DNA from: a virus
Direction: 5' to 3' (one strand)
Length of the DNA: 64,000 bases
Virus record (IMG/VR): IMGVR_UViG_3300025162_000050
Location: 6,838-70,837 of that record
Shown: positions 20,301 through 61,975 of the stretch, piece after piece
Position numbering within the stretch: the first letter of the stretch is position 1
How the letters are laid out: each line of letters opens with the position of its first letter
Position numbers and translations under genes: made by a program
The notes under the pieces: generated by a model
Told to the model about the DNA's origin: nothing
The model's database searches: none
What the model saw: the letters and a program-made list of their open reading frames with translations, nothing else

Positions 20301-23300
20301 GTTTCGTTACTAATCTACGCAAAAGAATAGCTAATGAGTTTCTTAGAAAGACCCAAGCATTATCTAAAAATATTAGTGAAGATGATTCATTCTCAAATAT
20401 AGATCTATTAAACAAATTAATTAAAGAACTTAATAGTAGAATTAGTGTTTTCACTAATGGTGAATTTCACAAAGATTTGATTAGTGGTTATTCAGATAAG
20501 TTGGTAAAACTTAGAGATGAAATAGAATCCTATAAGAATAAAGCCGAATTAAATAAAAACAATAAAGCAGAATTAGATGAGCGTGTGAAACGTGATAATA
20601 ACAATTCACATATGAATGCGCTAGGTTTATCTTTAAATGGTATGAAAGTGTCTATTATGGATAAAAGTCTTGTAGATGCGATTAAATCAATCGTAGGGGA
20701 TGCTTTGTGGAATGAGTTAATATCAGGTTTAGAGACTGATGGAAAGCTAGGTGATTCTATCTTTGTAGATAGATTTATATCTAAAATATCAGAAGCAGAC
20801 AAAATAAAAGTTATTGATACTATCAATAAAAATAATGATTCTGTTAAGACCGAATTGAAGAATATCTTTGATTCATATATTGAAAATAATGTAAATAAAG
20901 CTAAGGAAAAAATTGTTCAAAAGAATTATCTAAATTCATTCTTAGAGAATCCTGAAAGATGTTTATTTGGATTATTCTCAAGGCTTAAAAGTGATGGTAA
21001 AATAATACTTAAAGTTTCGACAGAAAAATCTACAAATAATAAGAAAAGTATTTTAGATAAGTTCTTAGTCGATAATAACCTTGAGTTATTTTTAGAAAAT
21101 GTAGAATTAGATACAACCGAATTAAATGATTCTGACAGAGGGTTTATAAAAGGACTTCTTGAAAAATTAATTAAGGTTAGAAACTCTGCAATCATATCTG
21201 AGTCATTGTCAACAAGTTCTAATATGAAGAATTTCGTTGAGACTGAAGATAAATTAGCTAAAGAAAATCAAGGTGGTATAGCCCCATCGAATCAACAAAG
21301 AGATATTCTTAAACGAATATTTAAATGGTTTGGTTTAAATGACATTGATAAATCTAATGGATACTCTTCTATATTATTATGTAATGGAATAGCTGGCACT
21401 GGTAAAACAACAGTAATAGCTAAATTGTTATTTAAGATACTTGCTAGAACAAATAACATTGATGTAAATAAAAATGTTACAGTTGTTGGTAGTAATAAAA
21501 ATATAGCTGAATCATTAGCTAAGAATCTATCAAAGAAAAATGATTCTGGTGTTTATAGTTTTGAAGAGTTTCTATCAAGTACAATCAGTTCTGATTCTAA
21601 AATTATAGTCTTTGACGAAATAGGTACTTTGGATTTAAGTGATATTAACAGACTGAAAGAAAAGATTGAGGATATAAATAAGAATAGAGACCAAAATAAC
21701 TTAATAAAAGTATTAGGTCTTGGAGATCCAAATCAGGTTAGAGATACAACATCGGATATCAAATCATTCTTTGTAGAGCAGATACCTGACCAATCATTTG
21801 AGTCTAGCAAAATAAAATCATTACCATCATTAATAGTTCAATATAGAAGTGATATTGATGCAATAAATGATGCTGCTGATGCTTTTAGTGGTCGTGCTAC
21901 TTATCCTCAATTTGTAATTGCTAAAGCTAGCACAGAATTAGATTCCACTAAAGATAATCCAAAAGGTGTTCATGCTGTAAAATCATTAGAGCAATTTGCT
22001 AAGAGAATTTCTATAGCACTAAAAGGTAATCGTGATGGTGGCAGAATTACTGTTGGATATAATACCGAAAACGAACTAGCAAGTCTCAAGTCAGCGATAA
22101 GTGCAGAGGACCAAACCAAATGTGATTTCAAACATTTCACGGAAATACAAGGTAGTACTCTTGACCAGATATTTATATATGTATTAAAGAATGGTGTTAC
22201 CAATCCAGTTCATGGAGGTTTAGCGGAGGTTGTTAAGTCAAGGTATAATGCTATAATGTATATGTTATTATCTAGGCCTAAAGAATATGCTTGTGTATAT
22301 AACGAAGATAATACCTTTACTCAGGAAGTAGATTCATTCTCAATGGAAAGTAAGACTACCCAAAACGTAGAGCAGATGCTTAAGGCAAAAGAACAATACA
22401 CTAATATTGTTAGTTCTGAATCTGCAATTATGGGTAATAAAAAAACTACTTCAAAGAAAACTACAACTCCAAAAGAAGAAACTGTAGAACCCATAATAGT
22501 TCCAACAGAAACTACTAAGGATGATGAAGACTTTGAGCAAAAAGATTTTGAAGATGACGAAGAAGATGCTACTAAAGAAATTGAAAAGATTGAGAAAGTA
22601 GAGTCTAAAATAAATTCTAAAGCAGACGCAGCAGAAGCAGCAGCAGCGGAAGAAGCTAAGAAAGAATTAGTAAGTGATGATGCTTTAAATCCAAATGCAG
22701 AACATATTTCAATAGAAAACACTACTAGTGATACAATTAAATCGTCTGGTATTAAAGCTGGAGATGAGTTGACTGTAAATAAAATGACTTCTAAGGGTAA
22801 AACCATATGGGGTTTATTTGCTAAAGTTGGGAATGTTTATCATCATGTAGCTAGTCTAAGTACTAAGGAGGCTTTAGCTCTTGGGTTGCAGGAGTCTGAT
22901 TTTGAGAAAGGCTCTGTAATACAAAATGCAGATGGTATTTATAAGGCAAAAGATGTTGAAAATACATTCGCTTTAAAGGATGGCAATCAAATTAAAATGG
23001 TTGTATCTAAAGACCCAACTACACTTACAATAAAGTATGACCAAACCGCACCAATGTCTGGTAGTGGTTTTATTAGCGACGTAATAGCTTCTATGGCAGT
23101 TGCATTTAATAAAGTGAAGAAGAGTTCAATTGTTCAAATGTTCTTGCCTACAACGAAGAATATGGGCCCTGGACAACAGTATTCTCATCTTCCATTGAGA
23201 TTAGGAGTTCCTTATCTAATTGTAAAACTACCAGGCCTTAAAGAAATGTATGTTAGACTAGAGCCTAAGACTTTTAATTCTAAATCATCTTGGAATACAT

Positions 23301-37785: not shown

Positions 37786-38145
37786 TTATTTATTTCTTAA
37801 TTCATTAGTTCCAACAACTGCTGGCTTTTCTATTTTAAATCTATCATCTAATTCTGGATGATTAATTAATGTATTTACCATCATTGCGAGATTGCATTGA
37901 GCTAATCCTAGGTGATGTACGCCACTTTCTGGGTCTATATCTTCATACTCATTAAAGAATGCATTTAAATGCCTTAAAAGGCTATCCATTTGCTCTGTAA
38001 TAGGTAATCCCCGTCTCCAATTGAATGGAGCGTATTTGGCTGCTCCAAATGCAAATCCATCAGCTTCCCACTTATGACAATCTAATGGAATCATACCTAA
38101 TCTGCACTTACCAGTATTAAATCTTTCTGCTATTTTACTTTCCAT
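37786..38145 (-). CDS. dATP/dGTP diphosphohydrolase-domain protein (DUF5664-like)
   Basis: GK.R..., FGAAKY...NWRRG, DSLLRHL and DPESG.HHL..A.CN motifs. Confidence 0.85.
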   Translation of the reverse strand: MESKIAERFNTGKCRLGMIPLDCHKWEADGFAFGAAKYAPFNWRRGLPITEQMDSLLRHLNAFFNEYEDIDPESGVHHLGLAQCNLAMMVNTLINHPELDDRFKIEKPAVVGTNELRNK

Positions 38146-38689
38146 ATATTGACAGTTTAATCATTTGTATTAATACTAATGTCATTTCACTCCATTCATT
38201 CATTCTAAAACTATTTTCAATATCACAATCTTGATTCCACGGCCTATCAAAAATTATTTTAAATCCTTTAAATCCTTCAAAATTATGCAATCCATCGTCA
38301 ATTAAAACATCTAAATCTAATAATGATTTATTGTTAATGAAGATAATATTTTTTATCGGAAAGAATGGCATAAATTTCTTAACAAAATTCACTTTATCAT
38401 CACAAACACCTGTATTATACGATGCGTTTGCTGTGACAATATAAACTTCTTGATCTTTACACAGCCTTTCAATTATTTTCGCTGCGCCGTCATTTATTGA
38501 TAAAGACTTAAACAGCTTTCCATCTCCAAGATACTTATAAAAATCTTTACCAATTTTTGTATAATCAGCAATATCCCATGATTTAATGTCTTCAATAGAT
38601 AAAGTGTCATTATAATCCTTATTATAACACTCTATCCACTTGAAAACTAAGTCATTAATAACGTCGTCTAGGTCAATTCCAATGCGCAT
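38135..38689 (-). CDS. 5'(3')-deoxyribonucleotidase (HAD, NT5C-like)
   Basis: IGIDLDDV, IVTA, K...DVLIDDG.HN and RPWN motifs. Confidence 0.9.
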   Translation of the reverse strand: MRIGIDLDDVINDLVFKWIECYNKDYNDTLSIEDIKSWDIADYTKIGKDFYKYLGDGKLFKSLSINDGAAKIIERLCKDQEVYIVTANASYNTGVCDDKVNFVKKFMPFFPIKNIIFINNKSLLDLDVLIDDGLHNFEGFKGFKIIFDRPWNQDCDIENSFRMNEWSEMTLVLIQMIKLSIYGK

Positions 38690-39273
38690 AATTTTTGTTC
38701 CTCAATTTTTTCCATTAATTTTACATATGATATTGGGTAAAAGTCATTATTATCCACGCCTATATCGTAACGTTTAGGATGAAATGGTACTTTTTCTGAA
38801 CCTTTATCACTATTTGGTCCGCTATGAACATGTCCGTGAAGCATAATACTTCCAGATGGCCAGTACATCAATGGATAATGTGACACAAATAATTGTGTGT
38901 TATTATCATTTCTGACTATTATATTAGCCACATCCATTTGGTCTCCGCCATAAGACCTGAATATGTTCTTAATCACTTCTCTATCAAGCTTATTCTGGTA
39001 ACAATGATTGCCCAGAACGTGATATATAGTTCCATTAAGTTTTTGATTTAATCTTACAATAAAATCAATATTTCCAGTCCAACATAAATCTCCAGCATGA
39101 ACTACTATTCCGTCTTCTGGAACTACCTCATTCCATCGTCTAATTAATTCTTCAGTTTGATCTTCATTTGAATTGAATGGACGATTACAAAATGCTCGGA
39201 TGTTGTCATGTAAGAAGTGACTATCCGAAGTGAAGAACAATTTATCTAAATCTCCTTTGTAATCAATTCTCAT
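38668..39273 (-). CDS. calcineurin-like metallophosphoesterase
   Basis: FTSDSHF.H.NI, HAGD, LGNH, SHYP, LHGHVH and DIGVD motifs. Confidence 0.9.
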   Translation of the reverse strand: MRIDYKGDLDKLFFTSDSHFLHDNIRAFCNRPFNSNEDQTEELIRRWNEVVPEDGIVVHAGDLCWTGNIDFIVRLNQKLNGTIYHVLGNHCYQNKLDREVIKNIFRSYGGDQMDVANIIVRNDNNTQLFVSHYPLMYWPSGSIMLHGHVHSGPNSDKGSEKVPFHPKRYDIGVDNNDFYPISYVKLMEKIEEQKLCALELT

Positions 39274-45011: not shown

Positions 45012-46412
45012 TTAATTTACTGGTGTTTTAAATGACATTTCTTTATCATCTATTAAATCAAAATATCCATAAGTGTCACCAAATTTATTTTGACACATCT
45101 TGTTATAAACTTTACGTTCTTTGATGTAATCCAATAAAATAGCTGTTGTTTCTTCATTATATGAAAATTCAATTACATCTTTCAATATAATAGATTTTAT
45201 TGGAGTACCATTTTCTGCGTAATTTAAAATTGCCATACAAATATACAACCAGTTTACCAACTTATCAATATTTGTTGTTGCATTATGAACTCTAAATTCC
45301 ACAGTTTTAATATTATTACCAAATAACATATTAATAAAATTACAATAATAGTAGCGAGAACGAACTTCCCATTTTCTATCACGACCTGGGTCACTTGGAT
45401 GAGGTCTGGTTAAATCACCATTCCAATCTGCATGTCCATCAGATAAATAATTGTAAAGAATTTCTATTGAATTCATTTTCTGTGGAAGTTTCTTACAATA
45501 ATCTTTACCATTTGATTTATAATGACTTGTTTGATAGACATAGTATGGAAATAATTCTCCAATTTCATCTTGCAATGAAAAGCATAAGTTATATAAATCA
45601 AGTATCTTAGCTTTTTCTAATGGAAATCCCCCTAAATGCAAATGAACTGAACAATCTTTATTAATATTGCAACTACTCTTTAATTCTTTCATTTGATTAG
45701 CAAGTAAATTTATACCAGCAAATCCTTTCATTGGAATAGTTGTATATTCATGACCACTAATTGAACCATCTCTTAATGGAATTAATCCCAATTGTTTACA
45801 TTTATATTCAGGAATAATACCAGCAGATGTTTCTACTTCAAACCCAAAAGAATATTTATCAATAACTTCTTCATATTTTTGACCAACTAAAAGTTTTTCT
45901 GTATATTTTGAATTATCAACTTGTGCAAACTTTTCAATTAGATTTTCTGAATTATATAGTCTTTCAAATGAATAAATATATGCATTACCTTTTTTATCCG
46001 TAGCTTTATCAAATCTTTTTGAACAGGCATATTTATAGTCATAAAATAATCCATTATATTCATCAAATACTTTTGGAATTAAATCAAACAATTCTTTACT
46101 ACACACAATATATCCACCATAGATAGTATATAATTGATAATCATATTCAAATTGTTTTTCAAATTTTCCATGTTTATATGAATCATTTTCATATCCAATA
46201 ATTCCACTAATTACATTTGGAGTAATTTTTTTCCATTCCTGTTTTACATCATCAAAATAAATTCTAGGATTTCCTTTGCGAAACCACCTACCATCTATAT
46301 TGAAGCAATCGACATTCTTTTGATAATATTCCCTATTAATAGAAATACAGTCTTTTTTATTAACTGTATTTCCAAATATTGTTGTTACTTTTATTTCTTT
46401 AATTTCTCGCAT
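45012..46412 (-). CDS. putative amidoligase (COOH-NH2 ligase fold, Amidoligase_2-like)
   Basis: FGFEVET, RDGSI, E..T.P, CSVHLH, SRY...N and TVEFRVH motifs. Confidence 0.85.
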   Translation of the reverse strand: MREIKEIKVTTIFGNTVNKKDCISINREYYQKNVDCFNIDGRWFRKGNPRIYFDDVKQEWKKITPNVISGIIGYENDSYKHGKFEKQFEYDYQLYTIYGGYIVCSKELFDLIPKVFDEYNGLFYDYKYACSKRFDKATDKKGNAYIYSFERLYNSENLIEKFAQVDNSKYTEKLLVGQKYEEVIDKYSFGFEVETSAGIIPEYKCKQLGLIPLRDGSISGHEYTTIPMKGFAGINLLANQMKELKSSCNINKDCSVHLHLGGFPLEKAKILDLYNLCFSLQDEIGELFPYYVYQTSHYKSNGKDYCKKLPQKMNSIEILYNYLSDGHADWNGDLTRPHPSDPGRDRKWEVRSRYYYCNFINMLFGNNIKTVEFRVHNATTNIDKLVNWLYICMAILNYAENGTPIKSIILKDVIEFSYNEETTAILLDYIKERKVYNKMCQNKFGDTYGYFDLIDDKEMSFKTPVN

Positions 46413-47919
46413 AAATTTCCCTAAGGTTTTTTCTAATCATTTTTTTAATTTGATTATTTGATAATTTTCCTAATAATATTTGCTCGTCTAAAGCTTTTTG
46501 CTCTAAACTTTCTTCATAATATGAAGCTTTATCCCTATATTCATAATGCCATGTTATATCACCATTTTGTACAATATATCTATTTCTAGTAAAGTCAAAG
46601 AATGGTTCAAATGGTTCATTACATAATTGAGTATCTCTTAAAACTTCATTATAAGTATAAAACTCTATGAATTTATGTTTTGTTGCATCTTCAATTATAT
46701 ATGGCACTGGTGTCGGTGAATATGCTGATAAATACATTTCTATACAATCGTCTTCGCATACTTGAAAATTCTGACTAACAAATTGTTTTGCACACAAATA
46801 ATCAAAATAACTTTTCATTAATACACCAGATACAAAATAAAATGTTTTTTTGATAACTATAGATACATCCGTGTATCCAGCTGGTGTTGATTCTATCAAT
46901 CCTTCACATGGATATCCATTATAATAATAAAGTCCATCTTCATTAAAGAATATTTTATTCTTTTGGATATAATTTGATACTTTTATCTTGTCACATTTTG
47001 CACTATCTACCCACTTCTTTCCATATCCTCTGTCACCATAAACACCACTTTGAGCTCCGTATTCAGGCCATTCTTCAAAGTCCTCATAACCACCATATGC
47101 AATACGTGATTGAGGAAATTTCTTAGCATTTTCAGCACGTTGTTTTTCCCAATTTACAACTAGTTTATCAACTTGCTTGCGCTTAGACCTGTCAATTGCA
47201 ATTTCAGATATTATTCTACCATTTTTAATAGTGAATAATATATTACTTTCTACATTTTCAACTTTAGCATCAGTATCATTAATAAATTCTAAAGATTCTT
47301 CCATTGATGAAAACCAATATGAATTTTCTTCTTTAATACAAGACAATGGTCTTTCGATGTAAATATCGTTGTCATTTTCATAGTATAAAGATGCTCCTTT
47401 GAATACTTTAATAGTATCAATTCCATCACGCCAATCCCAAAAAACAAAGGTTCCAGCTCCATCATATTCTTCAAGAACTCCATATCCAGCTTTATAAACT
47501 ATTCTACAGAATATTTGAGAATCAGATTCAGTTAATGTAAAATCTACATTATATTTAGTTGCAAGCTCTTTGTAATTTATTAAAGTGCCATTATGAATCA
47601 TTGAGAAAACAATTTCATTACGTTCATTCCTGATCGCCACTGGTTGAGCTGTTGCTAAACTAATCCCACCCACTGATGCTTTACGGCAATGTAATAATGC
47701 GAAATTTGGTAACTCAAGATCTACATCTTTTAATCCACCAAGTTCTACAAAATTCTTATAAAGTTTTGTTTTATCATGTCCATAGTGTACTGAATTTACA
47801 CCATCATTATTTATAAAGATACCACAAGAATCTCCTCCTCGTGAATCATTATATAGTCCAAGAATATTGAACTTGTATTTATTAAAATTATTTCCTATAT
47901 AGCCTGAAATCCCACACAT
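46399..47919 (-). CDS. class II (Ntn) glutamine amidotransferase
   Basis: MCGI N-terminal Cys, RG.DS.G, H.RKAS.G, HNGTL and SDS motifs. Confidence 0.9.
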   Translation of the reverse strand: MCGISGYIGNNFNKYKFNILGLYNDSRGGDSCGIFINNDGVNSVHYGHDKTKLYKNFVELGGLKDVDLELPNFALLHCRKASVGGISLATAQPVAIRNERNEIVFSMIHNGTLINYKELATKYNVDFTLTESDSQIFCRIVYKAGYGVLEEYDGAGTFVFWDWRDGIDTIKVFKGASLYYENDNDIYIERPLSCIKEENSYWFSSMEESLEFINDTDAKVENVESNILFTIKNGRIISEIAIDRSKRKQVDKLVVNWEKQRAENAKKFPQSRIAYGGYEDFEEWPEYGAQSGVYGDRGYGKKWVDSAKCDKIKVSNYIQKNKIFFNEDGLYYYNGYPCEGLIESTPAGYTDVSIVIKKTFYFVSGVLMKSYFDYLCAKQFVSQNFQVCEDDCIEMYLSAYSPTPVPYIIEDATKHKFIEFYTYNEVLRDTQLCNEPFEPFFDFTRNRYIVQNGDITWHYEYRDKASYYEESLEQKALDEQILLGKLSNNQIKKMIRKNLREIYARN

Positions 47920-47921
47920 CC

Positions 47922-48734
47922 TTAGTATTTTAAGTTGATTTTATATTTTGATACAATCTTTTTGGCTTCATCAATATTGCCAGAATTGATTGTTTCTACA
48001 ATCCAGTCTTTATCATTATTGATTTCATCAATTCCAAATTCATTTAAGTAGTTGATAGCCTCAAAAGCCTGCCTAAATATATATTCAGTTAGTTTTGGGT
48101 CGCTTAAGAAAAATCCACTTAGCACTCTAAATTCAGTTCCAAAAATCGTGTGGCGAAAGCAGCCAGCCCTACCATATAGACTTCTACGTTTGGTGTCAGT
48201 ATCAATGATTATTGATGGAATTCCCATAAAAACATCCATTGCTTTAATCAAATCTCTTGAACGCTTAGCTGTTTTATTATCATAACCAAGATGCACATGC
48301 ATCCCGCAGCTGCGTAAGTTGGTTGAAGTACCTTGTGGTTTCTCATTAACACCATTTGTCCATGCATTATAATCAGGACTACAACCAAATTCCTTAGCTT
48401 CATCTGAAGTTAATTGGTCATCATCATAAACTCCTGAAGCTGCATATATTGGATGTAAGCCTTTCGATTCCAATAATCCACTAATGTATGCTTTCATGAT
48501 AGAAACGTTATTAGCTACTTCTTGAGCTGTATATCCATGAGGTACATTAAATTCTCCAAGAACATTATCTTTTTGAATTGCAAATCCAGAACCTAAAAAC
48601 TTTAATCTATTGGGAATATCTTTTGTTCCTTTGATAATTCCTATTGAAGAAATTAATTTACCATCTTTATTTTGTATAAAAAATTCAGGGTCAGTTCCAA
48701 TTGTAATATTTTTGTATTGAAAAATTTCTTGCAT
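47922..48734 (-). CDS. phiEco32-like COOH-NH2 ligase type 2
   Basis: IGTDPEFF, DNV..EFN, FGC.PD.NAW, LRSCG.HVH, RR.LYG.AG.FR and EFRVLS motifs. Confidence 0.9.
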   Translation of the reverse strand: MQEIFQYKNITIGTDPEFFIQNKDGKLISSIGIIKGTKDIPNRLKFLGSGFAIQKDNVLGEFNVPHGYTAQEVANNVSIMKAYISGLLESKGLHPIYAASGVYDDDQLTSDEAKEFGCSPDYNAWTNGVNEKPQGTSTNLRSCGMHVHLGYDNKTAKRSRDLIKAMDVFMGIPSIIIDTDTKRRSLYGRAGCFRHTIFGTEFRVLSGFFLSDPKLTEYIFRQAFEAINYLNEFGIDEINNDKDWIVETINSGNIDEAKKIVSKYKINLKY

Positions 48735-48771
48735 ATTTTTAAATTTTGTTATTATTTTATACTTTAATTAA

Positions 48772-49668
48772 TTATCTTAAATTTACATCTAGGAATTCTA
48801 AATCGTCATCATTAAGTTGCCATTCTGGAGTATTTCTAACTGGTCTTCGTGCTTGAGCTGCTATCTCATTGGCCATTATATTTAAATTACCCCAATCAAT
48901 ATTATTTAGCTCTGCACGTACATCTCTTATTTGACCAGCAATACCAGCATCTGCGTTAGGAGCTTCAACATCCTCTTCAATTACCATTGGAGTAGTTTCT
49001 ATCGTATCTTCTAAATATTCACGAATAAGAACATTAATATATCTTACAGCATTAGAATCTTTTGGCATATATTCTGGATGACCCTGAATACATAACGAAT
49101 TAGTAGTTTTGTAATAAACTATTTCACATTCTACAAAATTACTTACTAATCTTTTTTCTCTATCTTCCCCATTTAAATATGTAGTTGATAAATCTTTTGT
49201 TGATTTAGCTATTAGAGTATAACTTTCTTTATCTAAGTGAAATGGATACATCATTTGATGATGAGTGCTTGTGATATCAATATTCACATCTTCATTCATT
49301 AAATGAATTTTATGCGTTCCACATATTGCATGATTTGTTACATGTTGAATTAATTCTCCACCAGACATAATAGTCAGCCATTGACTCCCGCGACAAATTC
49401 CCAAGCAAAACTTATTATACATTCTTGCCTCATTAAAAGCTTTTACCTCGCGCCTATCTCTATCTATATTAGTTCTAGTAAATTGACCTTTTTTTTCACC
49501 ATAATAAGATGGATGAACATCTTCTCCGCCAGTAAATAGTACTATATCTGCTTCTGAAATAGTATCGACTATCTTAATCTTATCTAAGAATAGATCAGTA
49601 TAACCAACATCTCTACCAACAACATAAACTTTTATTTCTTTATTCTTTTCAATCATTTCTTTGTTCAT
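48772..49668 (-). CDS. class I glutamine amidotransferase / peptidase C26
   Basis: FTGGEDV.P..YG, GICRGSQ, S.HHQ and QGHPE motifs. Confidence 0.9.
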   Translation of the reverse strand: MNKEMIEKNKEIKVYVVGRDVGYTDLFLDKIKIVDTISEADIVLFTGGEDVHPSYYGEKKGQFTRTNIDRDRREVKAFNEARMYNKFCLGICRGSQWLTIMSGGELIQHVTNHAICGTHKIHLMNEDVNIDITSTHHQMMYPFHLDKESYTLIAKSTKDLSTTYLNGEDREKRLVSNFVECEIVYYKTTNSLCIQGHPEYMPKDSNAVRYINVLIREYLEDTIETTPMVIEEDVEAPNADAGIAGQIRDVRAELNNIDWGNLNIMANEIAAQARRPVRNTPEWQLNDDDLEFLDVNLR

Positions 49669-50425
49669 AATTAATAATTAACACTTTCTTAATTTCATCG
49701 CTTATGATATTTTTTTCTACACAATCCCAAAATCCAGATTCTTCATAATCATTTTCATTATATTCAATCCTATTTTCTGGTGTAGTTGCTCTATCTTTAA
49801 AAAATCCACAAACATTAACTAATCTTCCTCTATACTTTAAATATCTCGATTTAAGCTGCCTGTTATTCATAGGTACAACACCAACATTATAAAACATTGC
49901 GTGTATATCTCTGTGACCATGTAGCGAATTTATTGCAATACATAATCTTTCCGTAAAATCAAGACTTTTAAATTCATCATGAGATTTCATTAAAAATGCT
50001 AATTTAATCATAATATTAAATGGCATTTCATATATATTTCTTATAAGTGAAGCTATAATCCTTAATTCATAGGGATATCTATTTCTAATATTAACTTCAT
50101 ATATCTTAAAATCAGTGCTTTTAATACTATCCAATATAAGAGTTTTACTTTCTTTTATAGATATACCAGTTATGTATTTAACCCAATTTAAATATTCAGA
50201 CACCTCTTGCTCATTAAGTAAACAATAGTTATCAATATAATCATCATTGAGTTTTTTGTCAAAAAATACTTTAACACCAAGTCTAGCGCTTATTTTAATT
50301 GTTGAATGTAAATAAGAAGATTGCCTATACATTTGATTAAAGCAATTTCCATTAATAAACTCTAATTGATTTTTATTAATCTTATAGAAATGATGTGTTG
50401 CATAGTTTAATCCATTAGTTACCAT
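49649..50425 (-). CDS. hypothetical protein within amidoligase cluster
   Basis: 258 aa. Ends at TGA, with TAA three codons later. Confidence 0.75.
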   Translation of the reverse strand: MVTNGLNYATHHFYKINKNQLEFINGNCFNQMYRQSSYLHSTIKISARLGVKVFFDKKLNDDYIDNYCLLNEQEVSEYLNWVKYITGISIKESKTLILDSIKSTDFKIYEVNIRNRYPYELRIIASLIRNIYEMPFNIMIKLAFLMKSHDEFKSLDFTERLCIAINSLHGHRDIHAMFYNVGVVPMNNRQLKSRYLKYRGRLVNVCGFFKDRATTPENRIEYNENDYEESGFWDCVEKNIISDEIKKVLIINYEQRND

Positions 50426-51269
50426 CTAACATTTTTCTAAGTTGTTCTTCATATTTTATAACAGTTACCTCTCCAAAACTTGCCGCTGAGTTTACTTCCA
50501 TCACTATAAATTCTGGATTACCGCCTCTATCACGACCTTTCTCTGACTGAACTTTAATATCACAAGCCCCAATATCTAATCCAACAGCATTTAAAGCTTC
50601 TACACATTCATCCACTATCAAATCCCAATTACTAGGTTTTTCAAATAAAGGATTTTCTTCCATTATCCATACTGAATTCATATCATGACGATGCCAACGT
50701 TCTTCAGCATCTTCTTTGAGCATTTTACGACAAGTGTAGAAGCATCCATCTTTTGTTACATGAAGACGATATTCTTTAGAATAATTGTAGTATTTTTCAA
50801 TAACGTAATTATGCAATGAGTTTTGATGCTCTACTATAAATTGTAAAAATTCATCTTTGTTTTCAATATAATAAATTCCATTACCTTTACAAGAGTTTTT
50901 GTGTTTTATAATTAGTGGAAACTCCAAGATATTTCTATCTATCATATCAACTAAATCTTCATAATCACAACTATCAACCCATTGTGGACTGGTAAAAAAT
51001 CCATCTCTATATGTAAACCATGCCGCTGATTTAACTTTTCCTTTCGTAAACAAAGTTTTCATTAATATTTTATCACCACTATTATGACAAGCTTCTGCTG
51101 TATTAATTTCAATGATAGGCTTATTTAAAGCTACACCACGAGGAAATATTTCTTCAGTAGGTGTAATTGACCCAAGTCTGAAAACAACCCTACCATTGAC
51201 CTCTATTAAGTTTTTAAGAGGTTGAGCTGTGTGATTCTTTGTGCGAATTTTTAAAAATGATTTTCTCAT
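50415..51269 (-). CDS. ATP-grasp (RimK-like) peptide ligase
   Basis: DK..MK, FPLIIK....KGNG, EYR.HV, GLDIGA.D and EVNSA motifs. Confidence 0.9.
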   Translation of the reverse strand: MRKSFLKIRTKNHTAQPLKNLIEVNGRVVFRLGSITPTEEIFPRGVALNKPIIEINTAEACHNSGDKILMKTLFTKGKVKSAAWFTYRDGFFTSPQWVDSCDYEDLVDMIDRNILEFPLIIKHKNSCKGNGIYYIENKDEFLQFIVEHQNSLHNYVIEKYYNYSKEYRLHVTKDGCFYTCRKMLKEDAEERWHRHDMNSVWIMEENPLFEKPSNWDLIVDECVEALNAVGLDIGACDIKVQSEKGRDRGGNPEFIVMEVNSAASFGEVTVIKYEEQLRKMLDGN

Positions 51270-51270
51270 T

Positions 51271-51834
51271 TTATTTGTTTTTTAATTGTGATAAATAAGA
51301 GTTTGCTAATTCAGTAATTTTCTTGATAGTAACACCATCTCCTTTTGATTTTTCTTGGTCACTTTGTCTGCTAAGATCGCAATTAGACACATTGATGCCA
51401 TCAAGTATTTCCATGAATTTATCTTCTATTAAAAGCCATTTTCTATCAAGATTTCCGCCATATTTAGGATGACTTTTAATTACTATTTTATGAACTCCAA
51501 AACAATACGATACATGCATTTTTCTTGTAGGATCTAATTGATAATTCAATAAAATATATGCAAATCTATCAATTTTTAATCTTGGAAATTTAGCTCTCAA
51601 AATAGCGTATAAATCAGTAAAACTTCTATTTCTTTCAACTCTGCATTGTTCACACCCATCTTTAAAATAAGTTGCTTCATTTCTTGGATTTTGATTATCT
51701 AAATATTTCTCAAGATATTTTTCTGGAGTTTTAATATTTTCATAACTTTTAATAACTGCAATTTTATCTAAGTCAATAAGTTCTCTATCGTTAGCTTTAA
51801 GAAACGTTTCTTTAATTATTTGTATAGTATTCAT
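51271..51834 (-). CDS. hypothetical protein, paralog of 52222-52698
   Basis: Shares YLE.Y, Y.KD...QC...RNRSF.DL..I..A.F and C..V.K.V with the paralog. Confidence 0.75.
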   Translation of the reverse strand: MNTIQIIKETFLKANDRELIDLDKIAVIKSYENIKTPEKYLEKYLDNQNPRNEATYFKDGCEQCRVERNRSFTDLYAILRAKFPRLKIDRFAYILLNYQLDPTRKMHVSYCFGVHKIVIKSHPKYGGNLDRKWLLIEDKFMEILDGINVSNCDLSRQSDQEKSKGDGVTIKKITELANSYLSQLKNK

Positions 51835-51845
51835 TTATTGTTATT

Positions 51846-52214
51846 TTATTGATTTAACCAATCGCCAGATTCTACTATTTTACAATTCTCTATATAATCT
51901 TTATCATCTTTTAGATAATAAACCCAACTTTTTACTCCAAGATTCTCTAATTCAATCTCACATCTATCATAAAATGATGGATAACCTTCATATTGGTCAA
52001 GAGTTCTTAAAGTATTTTTATCATCATCTTTGATTTTATATGTCTCAAAGACTAATTCATTCTTTTCTTCAGATTTTACTAATCCTGGAAATCCACCTAA
52101 ATGTAACATTTTAAAATTTACATTTTCTTTAGAGATACCAATAAATTCAGTATTATCCATTTTGTAATTTGCACCACATCCTTTTCGGAGGGTTCCATAA
52201 ACTGATATAAACAT
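51846..52214 (-). CDS. gamma-glutamylcyclotransferase (AIG2-like)
   Basis: VYGTLR.G..N, FPGL, LD.YEG.P..Y.R and SGDW motifs. Confidence 0.9.
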   Translation of the reverse strand: MFISVYGTLRKGCGANYKMDNTEFIGISKENVNFKMLHLGGFPGLVKSEEKNELVFETYKIKDDDKNTLRTLDQYEGYPSFYDRCEIELENLGVKSWVYYLKDDKDYIENCKIVESGDWLNQ

Positions 52215-54175: not shown

Positions 54176-54252
54176 TGGAATATCAGAGGGACTCAAACCC
54201 CCACAAAGCCCTTGTTAACGAGCCCACTCTATTCAATTAAGCTATGATATTC
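54176..54252 (-). tRNA. atypical/degenerate tRNA, anticodon undetermined
   Basis: Reverse complement folds as G-AATATCA/TGATATT-C-CA acceptor, D arm GCTT-AATTGAATA-GAGT, anticodon arm GGCTC-GTTAACAA-GGGCT (8-nt loop) and T arm GGGGG-TTTGAGT-CCCTC. Confidence 0.65.
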
Positions 54253-56896: not shown

Positions 56897-58101
56897 ATAT
56901 TTCTTCTTTTCTCTTTTAATTCATCATTTTTAAATAAAAACATTGCAACCTTTTTGGGTTGTCTTATACTATCAAGCATTGAATAAACTTTTGCTATTCC
57001 AATGTCATCATTTGGTAGTGGTAATTCACGGAAGTAATTTGTACATCCGTCAAATGCCAGTGGAGCTATTGATCCAGCACCACCACTTCTTGAAATTATA
57101 ACCTCTACAAATCTCACGTTGTCACGCATCCTTGAAATATCGTATCCAAGATAATTTTGTAATTCCTGCTGAAATGGACTAAAGATTCCGAGCATGACAT
57201 CACAATCTCTTGCAAGCACCTTGGAATCACCGAGATCTGCTACTGATGGCTTTAGCTTGCCCATCTTTACATTTTCAATTGATTGTCCCTGTATAGATTG
57301 TTGTTGGATTACCACCGGAATGTACTTGTACTTATTTCTAAGAGATACAAGATAATCTGATGATAATTTTACCATTGATTCTTGAAGTGTTAATGGCCTA
57401 CCATTAGTTGCTTCTGATTGTATTAATGATATATGATCTATCATGCAAAACACATACTCATCTTCATCAAACGGCTCATAATAATCGTCTACTTCTTTTG
57501 GAGTTATTTCTTTTGTCTCATTATTTATAAAATTAATAATCTTTTTATGTTGCTTTCCTTTTATTGCAGCATAATCTTTCATAAACCTAAAAATTCCCGT
57601 AGGATTTCGTATTGAATCAATTATTTTTACATTTTCTTCAAAAAACATTAAATATCTTTGGTATTCATCTGTTTGTAGAATATTAAGAATTTCTTCATCT
57701 ACTGGATGCTCTGAATTTGTAGACCTTAAATCTCTTGGTGAAATCCTGTATTTGCCTCTTGATAGTATATGTAATAAATAACACACAAACTCTTGGTATA
57801 AATCTTCTTGACTTATTTCTAATGAAAATATAAATGCCTTCATTCTCATTTTGTCAGGATTTTCAAGAGCGTACATTAGAGGTCTGAATATAAAGAAGTA
57901 ATAAGAAAATTTAGACTTACCCGCCTTGGTCTGTCCAGTGATATTATAGTACCTACCTCTCTCTATTCCTGCAAATTCTTCTGAAAATCTTTTGAATGGA
58001 TTGGGTATACAATTTATCTTACCAGATAGAACACGCTCCCTAGAATTTTTTAAACTATTAAATACCCTACTGAATAGTGTTTCTTTTACTTGTACTTCCA
58101 T
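56851..58101 (-). CDS. dnaB: DnaB-like replicative helicase
   Basis: GQTKAGKS, FSLEIS, IDHISL, IQQQ, DLGDSK...RD.D and R.GG motifs. Confidence 0.85.
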   Translation of the reverse strand: MEVQVKETLFSRVFNSLKNSRERVLSGKINCIPNPFKRFSEEFAGIERGRYYNITGQTKAGKSKFSYYFFIFRPLMYALENPDKMRMKAFIFSLEISQEDLYQEFVCYLLHILSRGKYRISPRDLRSTNSEHPVDEEILNILQTDEYQRYLMFFEENVKIIDSIRNPTGIFRFMKDYAAIKGKQHKKIINFINNETKEITPKEVDDYYEPFDEDEYVFCMIDHISLIQSEATNGRPLTLQESMVKLSSDYLVSLRNKYKYIPVVIQQQSIQGQSIENVKMGKLKPSVADLGDSKVLARDCDVMLGIFSPFQQELQNYLGYDISRMRDNVRFVEVIISRSGGAGSIAPLAFDGCTNYFRELPLPNDDIGIAKVYSMLDSIRQPKKVAMFLFKNDELKEKRRNIWQKLVEKIKNIFMG

Positions 58102-58685
58102 ATAAACCCTCCAGCAGTATTAAAACTTTTTATATTTTTACAACACGCAGAGATTGCCCAAGTTGAGATTTTTAAATTTCTATAAACATCTGCCATAGAA
58201 TCCCAATTTTTTATAAATTGTCCATCCTTGGAAAATTGTATTATTGCTTTTGAAGCTTTATTTTTTACTCCTAAAAGACCAGTGTGAGAACCAACTCTAT
58301 TTAAAACATTAAACGAATGTACTACATTTTCCTTATTTATTACCCATTCAAGATTTTTTAATTTGTTATTATTCTTTATGCCATCTTTATGAGTAATTTG
58401 TGGCTTATTTTCTGGATTATCCAAAAAGGCGATAGCAACTAACCTATGAATGAATATGTTTTTTCTTTTACCTTCATAAAATATTTTTACTTTTTCATAA
58501 CCGTCCTTATCTTTTGTCTTGGCAAGAAAATGCTCTAGTACCCATAAATATTTACTTCCAAATAAAACATATTTTTCTATTTTCTTTATGTTTCCAAGAT
58601 TGCTAATTTTAAAATAACTACCAAATCCATCTATAAACTTCCACTTTTGCCAAATAAATTGTTTAAGTATTTTTCTTTTTTTCAC
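58086..58685 (-). mobile_element. free-standing NUMOD4-HNH-NUMOD1 homing endonuclease
   Basis: W.FIDG....F.ISNLG, HRLVA.AFL.NP..KP...HKDG.K.NN...NLEW and TAGGFIWKY motifs. All Trp codons are TGG. Confidence 0.9.
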
Positions 58686-60963: not shown

Positions 60964-61275
60964 TTACAATTCTTGATATGACACACCAAATCCCTTATCA
61001 AATCTTTCAACCCAGGCTTTTAATCGCTGTTGCTTAGACATATTTTTCCAAATGAACTCTTTAATGAAGAATGGTGATTTACTACCAATCCAACCATTAA
61101 CAACTTCTTCAGAAATGTTTGTTTTACGAACACATTGAGTTTGCTCTTTTCCAAGATAAATAATGTGTTTGGTCAGTAATGACTTACCGTGACGATGTTT
61201 GACATCAGTTTCTTTGGTGATATTCCGCCCCAATGCACCAATTAAATTTACTGTTAATACGATTCCATTAGACAT
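60964..61275 (-). CDS. hypothetical protein
   Basis: 103 aa, with W....P......W..MSKQQRL pattern. Confidence 0.7.
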   Translation of the reverse strand: MSNGIVLTVNLIGALGRNITKETDVKHRHGKSLLTKHIIYLGKEQTQCVRKTNISEEVVNGWIGSKSPFFIKEFIWKNMSKQQRLKAWVERFDKGFGVSYQEL

Positions 61276-61404
61276 ACGATTACCTTTGCGCTAAGGATTT
61301 GATAATAATGCGCTTTATTACGATATTTAGTCGTCAATCAACCAATTTTTATGCTACAACGTTACTATTATTCACGGAGACTTAAAAAATTAGTAAAAAT
61401 AATT

Positions 61405-61577
61405 TGGTGTTATTGTGAGAATCGAACTCATGAGATTAAGATAGGCGTGACATGTACGCCTCGTTTTAATGCCTTTTATTGGCTATCTTACAACACTTGC
61501 CATAAGCAGTTCCCACAACACTTGTCGTGTAAGCTCTCTTTAATCTGATTAACGTTTACCACTCCGTCAAATAACAC
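61405..61577 (-). ncRNA. 173-nt tRNA-like RNA with expanded central domain
   Basis: G-TGTTATT/AATAACA-C-CA acceptor, D arm TG-ACG-GAGTGGTAAA-CGT and T arm TGAG-TTCGATT-CTCA. About 110 nt between the D and T arms are closed by AGATTAA/TTAATCT. Confidence 0.7.
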
Positions 61578-61585
61578 TTTTGTTT

Positions 61586-61618
61586 TAATTAGCTTCTACG
61601 ATTTATAGAAGCTAATTA
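61586..61618. repeat. perfect 13-bp inverted repeat (processing or termination hairpin)
   Basis: TAATTAGCTTCTA-CGATTTA-TAGAAGCTAATTA. Confidence 0.8.
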
Positions 61619-61627
61619 TTTAATTTA

Positions 61628-61975
61628 TTACTCAGCTTTCAATAAAGCATATTGTTCTTCTAAGAAATCAACAGTTTCTTTGTGAGCAATTAATTGTTTT
61701 TCAGCTTTCTTTAAGTTTTCTTTAGCTTTGATAAGATTGGCGATATAAGCATCGCGGTCAGAAATTTCTTTACCGTAATTAACGCGAGCTTTTATAAGAT
61801 TTTCTTGAGCATTTTCAAGAGCATCTTCTTTAGCAATAATATCACCATTAAGGGCTGCAATTTGAACTTTTAGTCCAGATTCAGCTTTTCTCCAATTTTT
61901 AAATCCTAAAGCTTCGGCATCGTTACCAACAATAATTGCTTTAAATTCTTTTACAAATGCATTTAGTTTGTTCAT
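61628..61975 (-). CDS. coiled-coil hypothetical protein
   Basis: 115 aa, A/E/K-rich heptads. Confidence 0.75.
   Translation of the reverse strand: MNKLNAFVKEFKAIIVGNDAEALGFKNWRKAESGLKVQIAALNGDIIAKEDALENAQENLIKARVNYGKEISDRDAYIANLIKAKENLKKAEKQLIAHKETVDFLEEQYALLKAE

Follow-up and report, generated by a model that had tools for sequence, protein, structure and literature searches.

A tRNA-like gene with a large, unconserved anticodon-loop insertion in a freshwater phage genome

Introduction

Phage tRNA genes are usually taken as helpers of codon usage or as suppressors, and a tRNA-shaped gene with about a hundred nucleotides in its anticodon loop raises the question of what such a gene is for. 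One lies on the minus strand of the stretch of DNA analysed here, called the window throughout, which is 64 kb out of a 70.8-kb viral contig (G000) with a G+C content of 30.5%. The contig originates from freshwater metagenome assemblies, and its completeness is estimated by CheckV at 71%. A preliminary description, made from the letters of the window alone, had proposed a 173-nt tRNA mimic of a possibly undescribed kind, and in the literature apart from supplementary files we found no description of such an element or family. Tentatively, at a probability of about 45%, we read it as a non-decoding tRNA-derived RNA in which selection keeps the acceptor, D and T core, the insert being a retained add-on specific to its lineage.

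Results

A tRNA core around an enlarged anticodon loop

The sequence features of the preliminary description are present as given there when read on the minus strand. The gene proper probably extends from G-1 (61577) to C73 (61407), and the parts of the element are as follows, from its 5' end to its 3' end.

61405-61577, minus strand: whole tRNA-like element, 173 nt (sequence; match to the family model R1, 28.1 bits, E 0.0014)
61570-61577, minus strand: G-1 and acceptor-stem 5' strand UGUUAUU, 7/7 Watson-Crick pairs with 61408-61414, G-1 opposite C73
61551-61568, minus strand: D arm GACG-GAGUGGUAAA-CGUU, class II-like, with D-loop GG (ARAGORN drawing; aligned to the D arm of the family model)
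61544-61548, minus strand: anticodon-stem 5' strand UCAGA (relaxed ARAGORN model; position homologous to CCUGA of L002_A)
61442-61543, minus strand: insertion of about 102 nt (95-102) in the anticodon loop, starting UUAAAG and ending CCUA (ARAGORN, folds)
61437-61441, minus strand: anticodon-stem 3' strand UCUUA (ARAGORN)
61432-61436, minus strand: variable loop AUCUC, 5 nt, with C48 opposite G15 (ARAGORN; sequence reading)
61415-61431, minus strand: T arm AUGAG-UUCGAUU-CUCAC, four pairs and an A.C mismatch (sequence; local match to the T arm of the Rfam tmRNA model)
61407-61414, minus strand: acceptor-stem 3' strand AAUAACA and discriminator C73 (sequence)

The element thus has the 7-bp acceptor stem, the UUCRANY-type T loop and the D-loop GG expected of a tRNA, and the claim of an intact acceptor, D and T core is borne out by the 7/7 acceptor pairs and the R1 match. 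These three parts can form a tRNA-like core, and that core is kept across relatives. There is no G3:U70 pair, position 3:70 being U:A, or G:C in an 8-bp register. An 8+4 reading of the acceptor branch is possible, with 8 bp including the G:C pair followed by the 4-bp UGAG/CUCA; the relatives that have the same acceptor have 5-bp T stems. The terminal CCA consists of C73 and the first two bases of the flank CAAAT, and since that flank is common to nine of the ten tabulated elements, the overlap is no demonstration of an encoded CCA.

Two registers compete at the base of the insertion. The 7-bp helix AGAUUAA/UUAAUCU is present, and a nearest-neighbour fold favours it by 5.8 kcal/mol over the tRNA-like register; it leaves almost no variable loop. 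The tRNA-like register, with the stem UCAGA/UCUUA (four pairs and a C.U mismatch) and the variable loop AUCUC with its C48, is homologous to that of the relatives. The anticodon arm, earlier described as replaced, is therefore still represented by a 4-pair stem with the insertion in its loop. A contiguous 5-bp anticodon stem closing a 7-nt loop with U33 and R37 was not found, the loop being about 102 nt. Folding of the whole RNA is modest against shuffles (z -1.99, with 7 of 200 shuffles equally good). On the sequences compared, the evidence that goes beyond chance is mainly comparative, the stability of the fold being modest.

The insertion

A large structured insertion had been claimed at the position of the anticodon loop, and its presence is confirmed: about 102 nt with three hairpins.

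61487-61533, minus strand: hairpin H1, long and G.U-rich, across the CAAGUGUUGU direct repeat (minimum-free-energy folds)
61471-61483, minus strand: hairpin H2, GCC-AAUAAAA-GGC (folds)
61443-61461, minus strand: hairpin H3, AGGCGU-ACAUGUC-ACGCCU, its 7-nt loop lacking U33 and R37 (folds)

The two copies of the CAAGUGUUGU repeat are at 61524-61515 and 61499-61490. A hairpin CACGAC-AAGU-GUUGUG is also readable in the insert sequence, and H3 read on the plus strand has a terminator-like score. Folded alone, the insert gave a z of -2.33 against 300 mononucleotide shuffles, and no pseudoknots were predicted in it. The insert contains no canonical anticodon hairpin (5-bp stem, 7-nt loop, U33, R37), three candidates overlapping parts of the core. 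UUGUGGG lies within H1 and outside any 7-nt loop, so that no GUG anticodon is presented there; the His-like UUGUGG that had been assigned to a loop is outside the loops of the best folds.

A lack of conservation in the insert had been named in advance as the mark of a tRNA pseudogene disrupted by an insertion. No nhmmer match was found between the insert and the relatives L001-L003, and when every element was compared by short-word BLAST with the genome and with all loci, acceptor or flank matches alone came back. The insert is unconserved in the relatives and it is the core that is conserved. Two further candidates were rejected. A mobile hairpin element or repeated insert was dismissed on the absence of a second insert copy by short-word BLAST in the genome and all loci, and a protein-coding alternative, the 65-aa frame on the antisense strand (61351-61548), matched nothing in Pfam at E up to 1 and lies in unconserved sequence.

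Detectors and known RNA families

At its default threshold ARAGORN called zero tRNA or tmRNA genes in the window, and at Rfam gathering thresholds the sole match in the whole window was a tRNA at 54178-54251. No known family at threshold covers the 173-nt element, in agreement with what had been anticipated. A permissive Rfam search of 61200-61800 (E up to 10) gave five weak matches, the two of note being to the tmRNA model and, just downstream of the element, to RAGATH-12, with no tRNA, intron or ribozyme among them: the tRNA model RF00005 had no match to the element, and group I and II intron and self-cleaving ribozyme families were absent, at this same limit. With introns allowed and the threshold lowered to 80% or 70%, ARAGORN called a tRNA-Phe(aaa) of 76 nt, interrupted by a 95-nt intron at 37/38; at the default threshold, introns allowed, there was no call. 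In an in-silico deletion scan of the element, seven tRNA calls were made at default among 12,994 variants (7,626 in another tally), and these were ambiguous as to identity, four being His(atg), two Phe(aaa) and one Val(cac).

Such results bear on whether some 95-102 nt are removed as an intron to give a working tRNA, for example tRNA-Phe(AAA) with the intron at 37/38. Bacterial and phage tRNAs that bear group I introns likewise have their intervening sequence in the anticodon loop, the relaxed ARAGORN model uses the canonical 37/38 site, the loop of L002_A also begins CU-AAA, and a tRNA-Phe(GAA) stands at the same site in the relative L014. In contrast to those tRNAs, the element has an insert of about 100 nt that matches no ribozyme, is unconserved and is retained in the sole contig from an RNA library, and ARAGORN with introns allowed made no call at default. 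A group I core, as recognised by an Rfam intron model and a length of about 200 nt or more, was not found in the insert of 95-102 nt, the smallest group I introns being about twice as long. Inspection of the exon-intron junctions limits the central helix of a bulge-helix-bulge to 2 bp. A purine at position 37 needs differing splice positions, 37/38 here against 36/37 in L002_A, anticodons with A34 are rare, and the anticodon stem has its C.U mismatch. No RNA ligase or splicing endonuclease was found in the 30 of 43 early ORFs that were scanned. We consider an intron improbable.

In its layout the element recalls tmRNA: the 5' and 3' ends form an acceptor stem, there is a T arm, and a large internal domain stands where the anticodon loop would be. 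As a ribosome-directed mimic, for instance a miniature tmRNA, it would bear an amino acid on its ends and hold a tag frame in its insert, and short frames are readable there, such as a GCA-started 5-codon frame that ends in UAG. The sole model signal is a 15-nt local match of the T arm to the Rfam tmRNA model RF00023, at 8.9 bits against a gathering score of 47. Unlike tmRNA, the element has a full D stem and lacks G3:U70, pseudoknots and a conserved tag frame, the short frames being unconserved because the insert is. ARAGORN in tmRNA mode made no call, also at an 80% threshold. The earlier statement that the element is not a tmRNA stands with the missing G3:U70 pair and the silence of the detectors, and a mimic of this sort is very improbable.

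Relatives at the same site

Relatives were reached through the neighbouring helicase and 103-aa protein, and comprise the viral contigs G001 and G002 and six short metagenome contigs. Wherever the sequence of a locus extends far enough, a tRNA-like gene occupies the interval from a conserved hairpin upstream to the leader of the 103-aa gene. The flanking features in the window are as follows.

61587-61617, strand not assigned: upstream hairpin of 12-13 bp that ends the 115-aa gene; same hairpin sequence in L001 and L014
61276-61404, minus strand: conserved leader from the element to the 103-aa gene, about 130 nt (8-locus alignment, mean column identity 67%)

The tRNA-like genes at this site in relatives are 57-133 nt long. 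They are listed with those of a second site, which lies downstream of a 307-aa gene and is likewise variable.

L014_A: 72 nt, near-normal tRNA-Phe(GAA); Rfam tRNA 43.4 bits
L013_A: 76 nt, GUGUUAU acceptor, anticodon loop of 8 nt (ARAGORN) to 10 nt, ttag; Rfam tRNA 35.3 bits
L002_A: 133 nt, 55-nt insertion after C32-U33, loop start CU-AAA; Rfam tRNA 40.9 bits
L015_A: 115 nt, GUGUUAU acceptor; no Rfam tRNA match, recognised by alignment only
L016_A: 115 nt, good tRNA-Leu(UAG) after removal of about 27-33 nt behind the D arm; Rfam tRNA 38.4 bits
L001_A: 57 nt, no anticodon arm, perfect D and T arms; Rfam tRNA 36 bits
Second site, window, 54176-54252, minus strand (win_B): second G-1:C73 tRNA of the genome, 74 nt, 8-nt anticodon loop GUUAACAA; Rfam 34.5 bits
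Second site, L002_B: 131 nt, tRNA-like; Rfam tRNA 30.2 bits
Second site, L001_B: 102 nt; recognised by alignment only, without an Rfam score

The Rfam tRNA gathering score was reached by seven of the nine compared elements at the two sites, plus the second-site tRNA of the window. For the latter, ARAGORN made a call only at a lowered threshold and with a four-base 'anticodon', taac; the G-1:C73 arrangement that it was said to have in common with the 173-nt element was verified. Deletion scanning of L016_A gave Leu(tag) in 405 of 2,211 variants and was the only decisive case. The acceptor and the D and T stems are thus kept among relatives together with the flanks, and the anticodon region is expanded, replaced or deleted.

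Four loci (the window, L002_A, L013_A and L015_A) have the GUGUUAU acceptor. Their acceptor stem is identical save for one A:U/U:A swap and one C73/U73 difference, and their D and T stems are wholly different and all paired. Canonical T loops are present in all ten tabulated elements.

Several observations were made around these loci. The leader at 61281-61359 (minus strand) resembles RAGATH-12, at 21.7 bits against a gathering score of 75, in the same place in L013-L016, L001 and L002, and its 3' hairpin GCGC...GCGC has compensatory changes in relatives (GCUC/GAGC, GCAC/GUGC). In L002 (3234-3722) and L015 (about 700-1165), some 490-560 nt of non-coding sequence, for which no Rfam match was found, lie between the homologue of the 115-aa gene and the tRNA-like gene. 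An extra ORF for an 81-aa Cys-rich protein, zinc-ribbon-like by weak Pfam matches, occurs in G001 only (L001 1493-1738, plus strand), between the conserved upstream hairpin and the tRNA-like gene without an anticodon arm. A pistol ribozyme (59.3 bits; gathering score 34.5) was found in a related phage at L005 6951-7013 (minus strand), which equals G002 76684-76746, about 5.5 kb upstream of the tRNA-like gene, a position that would be beyond the end of the window's contig.

Searches beyond these loci added few candidates. The 115-aa neighbour as query found no relatives, and two DNA patterns run against viral contigs found no new homologues. A looser DNA pattern hit 38 stretches, of which 37 were new loci, tRNA-like only in L045 and L022, and the 38th was the known L005. 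The hits in L045 (3895-3985, minus strand) and L022 (10149-10235, minus strand) are odd 87-nt tRNA-like genes in large tRNA arrays of jumbo phages; their acceptors are the same as, or nearly the same as, GUGUUAUU, and both were missed by ARAGORN. A further 87-nt tRNA-like gene missed by ARAGORN, at G001 22700-22786 (plus strand), has the motif GUAAUG..CAUCCU..AAUAAAG in common with these two.

Constraint on the core

The family model R1 is a covariance model built from eight relatives, L015_A and L001_B included, with the 173-nt element left out. Run over the 64-kb window, it placed the element second, with the exact ends 61405-61577 (28.1 bits, E 0.0014). Genuine tRNAs of unrelated phages score 18-42 bits with R1, a range within which the 28.1 bits of the element fall. 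Across the acceptor, D and T stems of the 8-sequence alignment, 97.3% of 111 cells are paired, and 11 of 15 stem pairs change on both sides; none of 500 shuffles and no slid register matches this. Because the aligned elements are partly different tRNA types, the covariation shows tRNA architecture and not selection on this copy.

Contigs that carry the insert

Four runs were compared with the window, and parts without cover carry no weight. A freshwater metatranscriptome (X20) has a 153-nt contig that covers 61438-61566, and with it the entire insert, at about 96% identity (five differences). It then continues for 21 nt unlike the window that can be read as another canonical-looking T stem and loop. 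Its substitutions at 61499 and 61501 preserve pairs of H1 (U.G to U:A, G:C to G.U). A DNA contig of a further study (X9) spans 61385-61535 with one difference in 151 nt. No joint that skips the insert was found in the four runs. The RNA library of X20 may hold contaminating DNA, and the contigs show no RNA ends, so these data hint weakly at the existence of the insert-bearing form as RNA and at a T arm that is kept in variants with the insert. That a variant has a different yet canonical-looking T arm suggests maintenance of the T arm alongside the insert.

The same data weigh on the reading in which the element is a decaying tRNA pseudogene, made by an insertion into the anticodon loop at a recombination-prone site, its core intact only through recency. 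Since the insert is unconserved, this reading is a serious one. It is consistent with the near-normal tRNA-Phe(GAA) at the same site in L014_A, with relatives that are damaged in different ways (a 10-nt loop, unrelated insertions, a deleted anticodon arm), with an insert that has no conservation among them, and with the rejection of the window copy by Rfam and default ARAGORN, only seven deletion variants being called a tRNA at default. Against it stand the 7/7 acceptor pairing, the intact T loop and the D-loop GG; the second natural variant in X20, with the same insert and another canonical-looking T arm; L001_A, which at 36 bits has perfect D and T arms and no anticodon arm; and the recurrence of the insert-bearing element in the DNA contigs of a further study (X9). 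Useless DNA, moreover, is usually deleted from phage genomes. On balance we regard decay as unlikely.

Genome context and recoding

The late genes, on the plus strand of window 1-36500 (genome 6271-43312), are interrupted in frame by many single TGA codons, with TAA as their final stop. With TGA as sense, frames merge and the longest grows from 2,679 to 4,879 aa. Early genes on the minus strand read normally with the standard code. The related contig G002 has the TGA pattern of the window in its late genes, and an ordinary tRNA(UCA) is present in G001. No tRNA(UCA) was found in the sequenced parts of G000 and G002, and a scan for a UCA anticodon hairpin in tRNA context, which recovered the G001 suppressor as a control, found none in G000 or G002. 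The flanks of the G001 tRNA cluster have no homologue in G000, so the suppressor may sit in the missing part of this 71%-complete genome. As given in Yutin et al. (PMC7886860), some recoded crAss-like phages are without a detectable suppressor.

The 173-nt element was considered as an opal suppressor and rejected, a UCA anticodon being impossible to form from it. For the same reason the suggestion that it is part of the recoding machinery found no support, no link to TGA recoding having emerged. Nor was the placement in Crassvirales confirmed: under code 4 a PHROG match was obtained for just one of seven scanned late proteins, which leaves the phage without taxonomic placement.

A Pfam scan covered 30 of the 43 minus-strand (early) ORFs of 60 aa or more, the other 13 being small ORFs. 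It identified proteins of nucleotide metabolism (nucleotide pool), amidoligase, ATP-grasp, GATase and GGACT proteins, and replication proteins, and found no RNA ligase, splicing endonuclease/EndA, CCA enzyme or synthetase among the 30. Genes for an amidoligase, a class-II GATase, a phiEco32-like COOH-NH2 ligase, a peptidase C26/GATase, an ATP-grasp protein and a gamma-glutamyl cyclotransferase lie at 45012-52214 (minus strand), and those for a dATP/dGTP diphosphohydrolase-like protein, a 5'-deoxynucleotidase and a metallophosphatase at 37786-39273. The two clusters suggest modified nucleotides or a peptide-like metabolite. A free-standing NUMOD4 and HNH homing-endonuclease-like gene was also observed at 58086-58685 (minus strand), between the DnaB-like helicase gene and the next gene.

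Discussion

The loss of the anticodon arm in one relative and loops of 10 to about 100 nt in others indicate that decoding is dispensable at this site, and we favour, with the caution expressed at the outset, a non-decoding RNA built on a tRNA core. In this proposal the element would be transcribed from the minus strand, as are the neighbouring early genes, and the transcript would fold into an L-shape. RNase P and a 3' nuclease (RNase Z) would excise the RNA, after which CCA could be added. The insertion of about 102 nt with its three hairpins would stay in the mature RNA. The core might serve as a punctuation mark for processing, set between the message upstream and the one downstream, or its acceptor end might be a substrate or decoy, with the insert as tolerated or accessory cargo, comparable to that of an engineered 'tRNA scaffold'. 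A role as processing signal leaves unexplained the sameness of GUGUUAU in four loci with differing D and T stems. Relatives lack the insert or have another in its stead, so a function of the cargo cannot be general.

The main determinant of histidyl-tRNA synthetase (HisRS) is G-1:C73. Irregular G-1 tRNAs with non-His anticodons are charged by E. coli HisRS and unused in translation, in the account given by Mukai et al. 2017 (PMC5389517). It is because of the G-1:C73 of the element and the charging of such irregular tRNAs that HisRS is proposed here as the enzyme that perhaps charges it. The element resembles the G-1 'tRNA1' and allo-tRNAs of that account (PMC5389517) in its non-canonical tRNA shape, its occurrence in metagenomes and phages and a G-1 opposite the discriminator, the 8+4 form being formally possible. 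It differs from them, as they are presented there, in that they have a normal anticodon arm and about normal length, whereas the element has about 102 nt in its anticodon loop.

A bolder version would make the insert the active part. The tRNA body would be a natural scaffold for expression and processing, its core recruiting host RNase P, 3' trimming, CCA addition and perhaps HisRS; the anticodon-loop cargo would be swappable, for example a decoy or binding platform, and its hypervariability would reflect an arms race and not decay. In the engineered 'tRNA scaffold', recombinant RNA is placed in the anticodon stem of a tRNA, which gives it processing and stability. The element is built alike, its tRNA body holding a foreign structured RNA where the anticodon loop would be, and by this analogy a natural use may be imagined. 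We find this version doubtful.

tRNA-like and irregular tRNA genes are already known; more notable here are the lineage-wide fixed sites, the conserved core and the hypervariable anticodon region. The locus suggests that a TGA-recoding freshwater phage lineage keeps tRNA-shaped genes at fixed sites and leaves their anticodon region free to vary, a pattern that points to a non-decoding use of the tRNA body. If the element is a product of decay, it would document quick turnover of tRNA cassettes in such phages and warn against counting these genes as decoders. Should the 170-nt form prove to be stable and processed, and perhaps aminoacylated, the laboratory 'tRNA scaffold' would have a counterpart in nature, and phages would have a new class of non-coding RNA that goes unseen in standard tRNA and Rfam scans.
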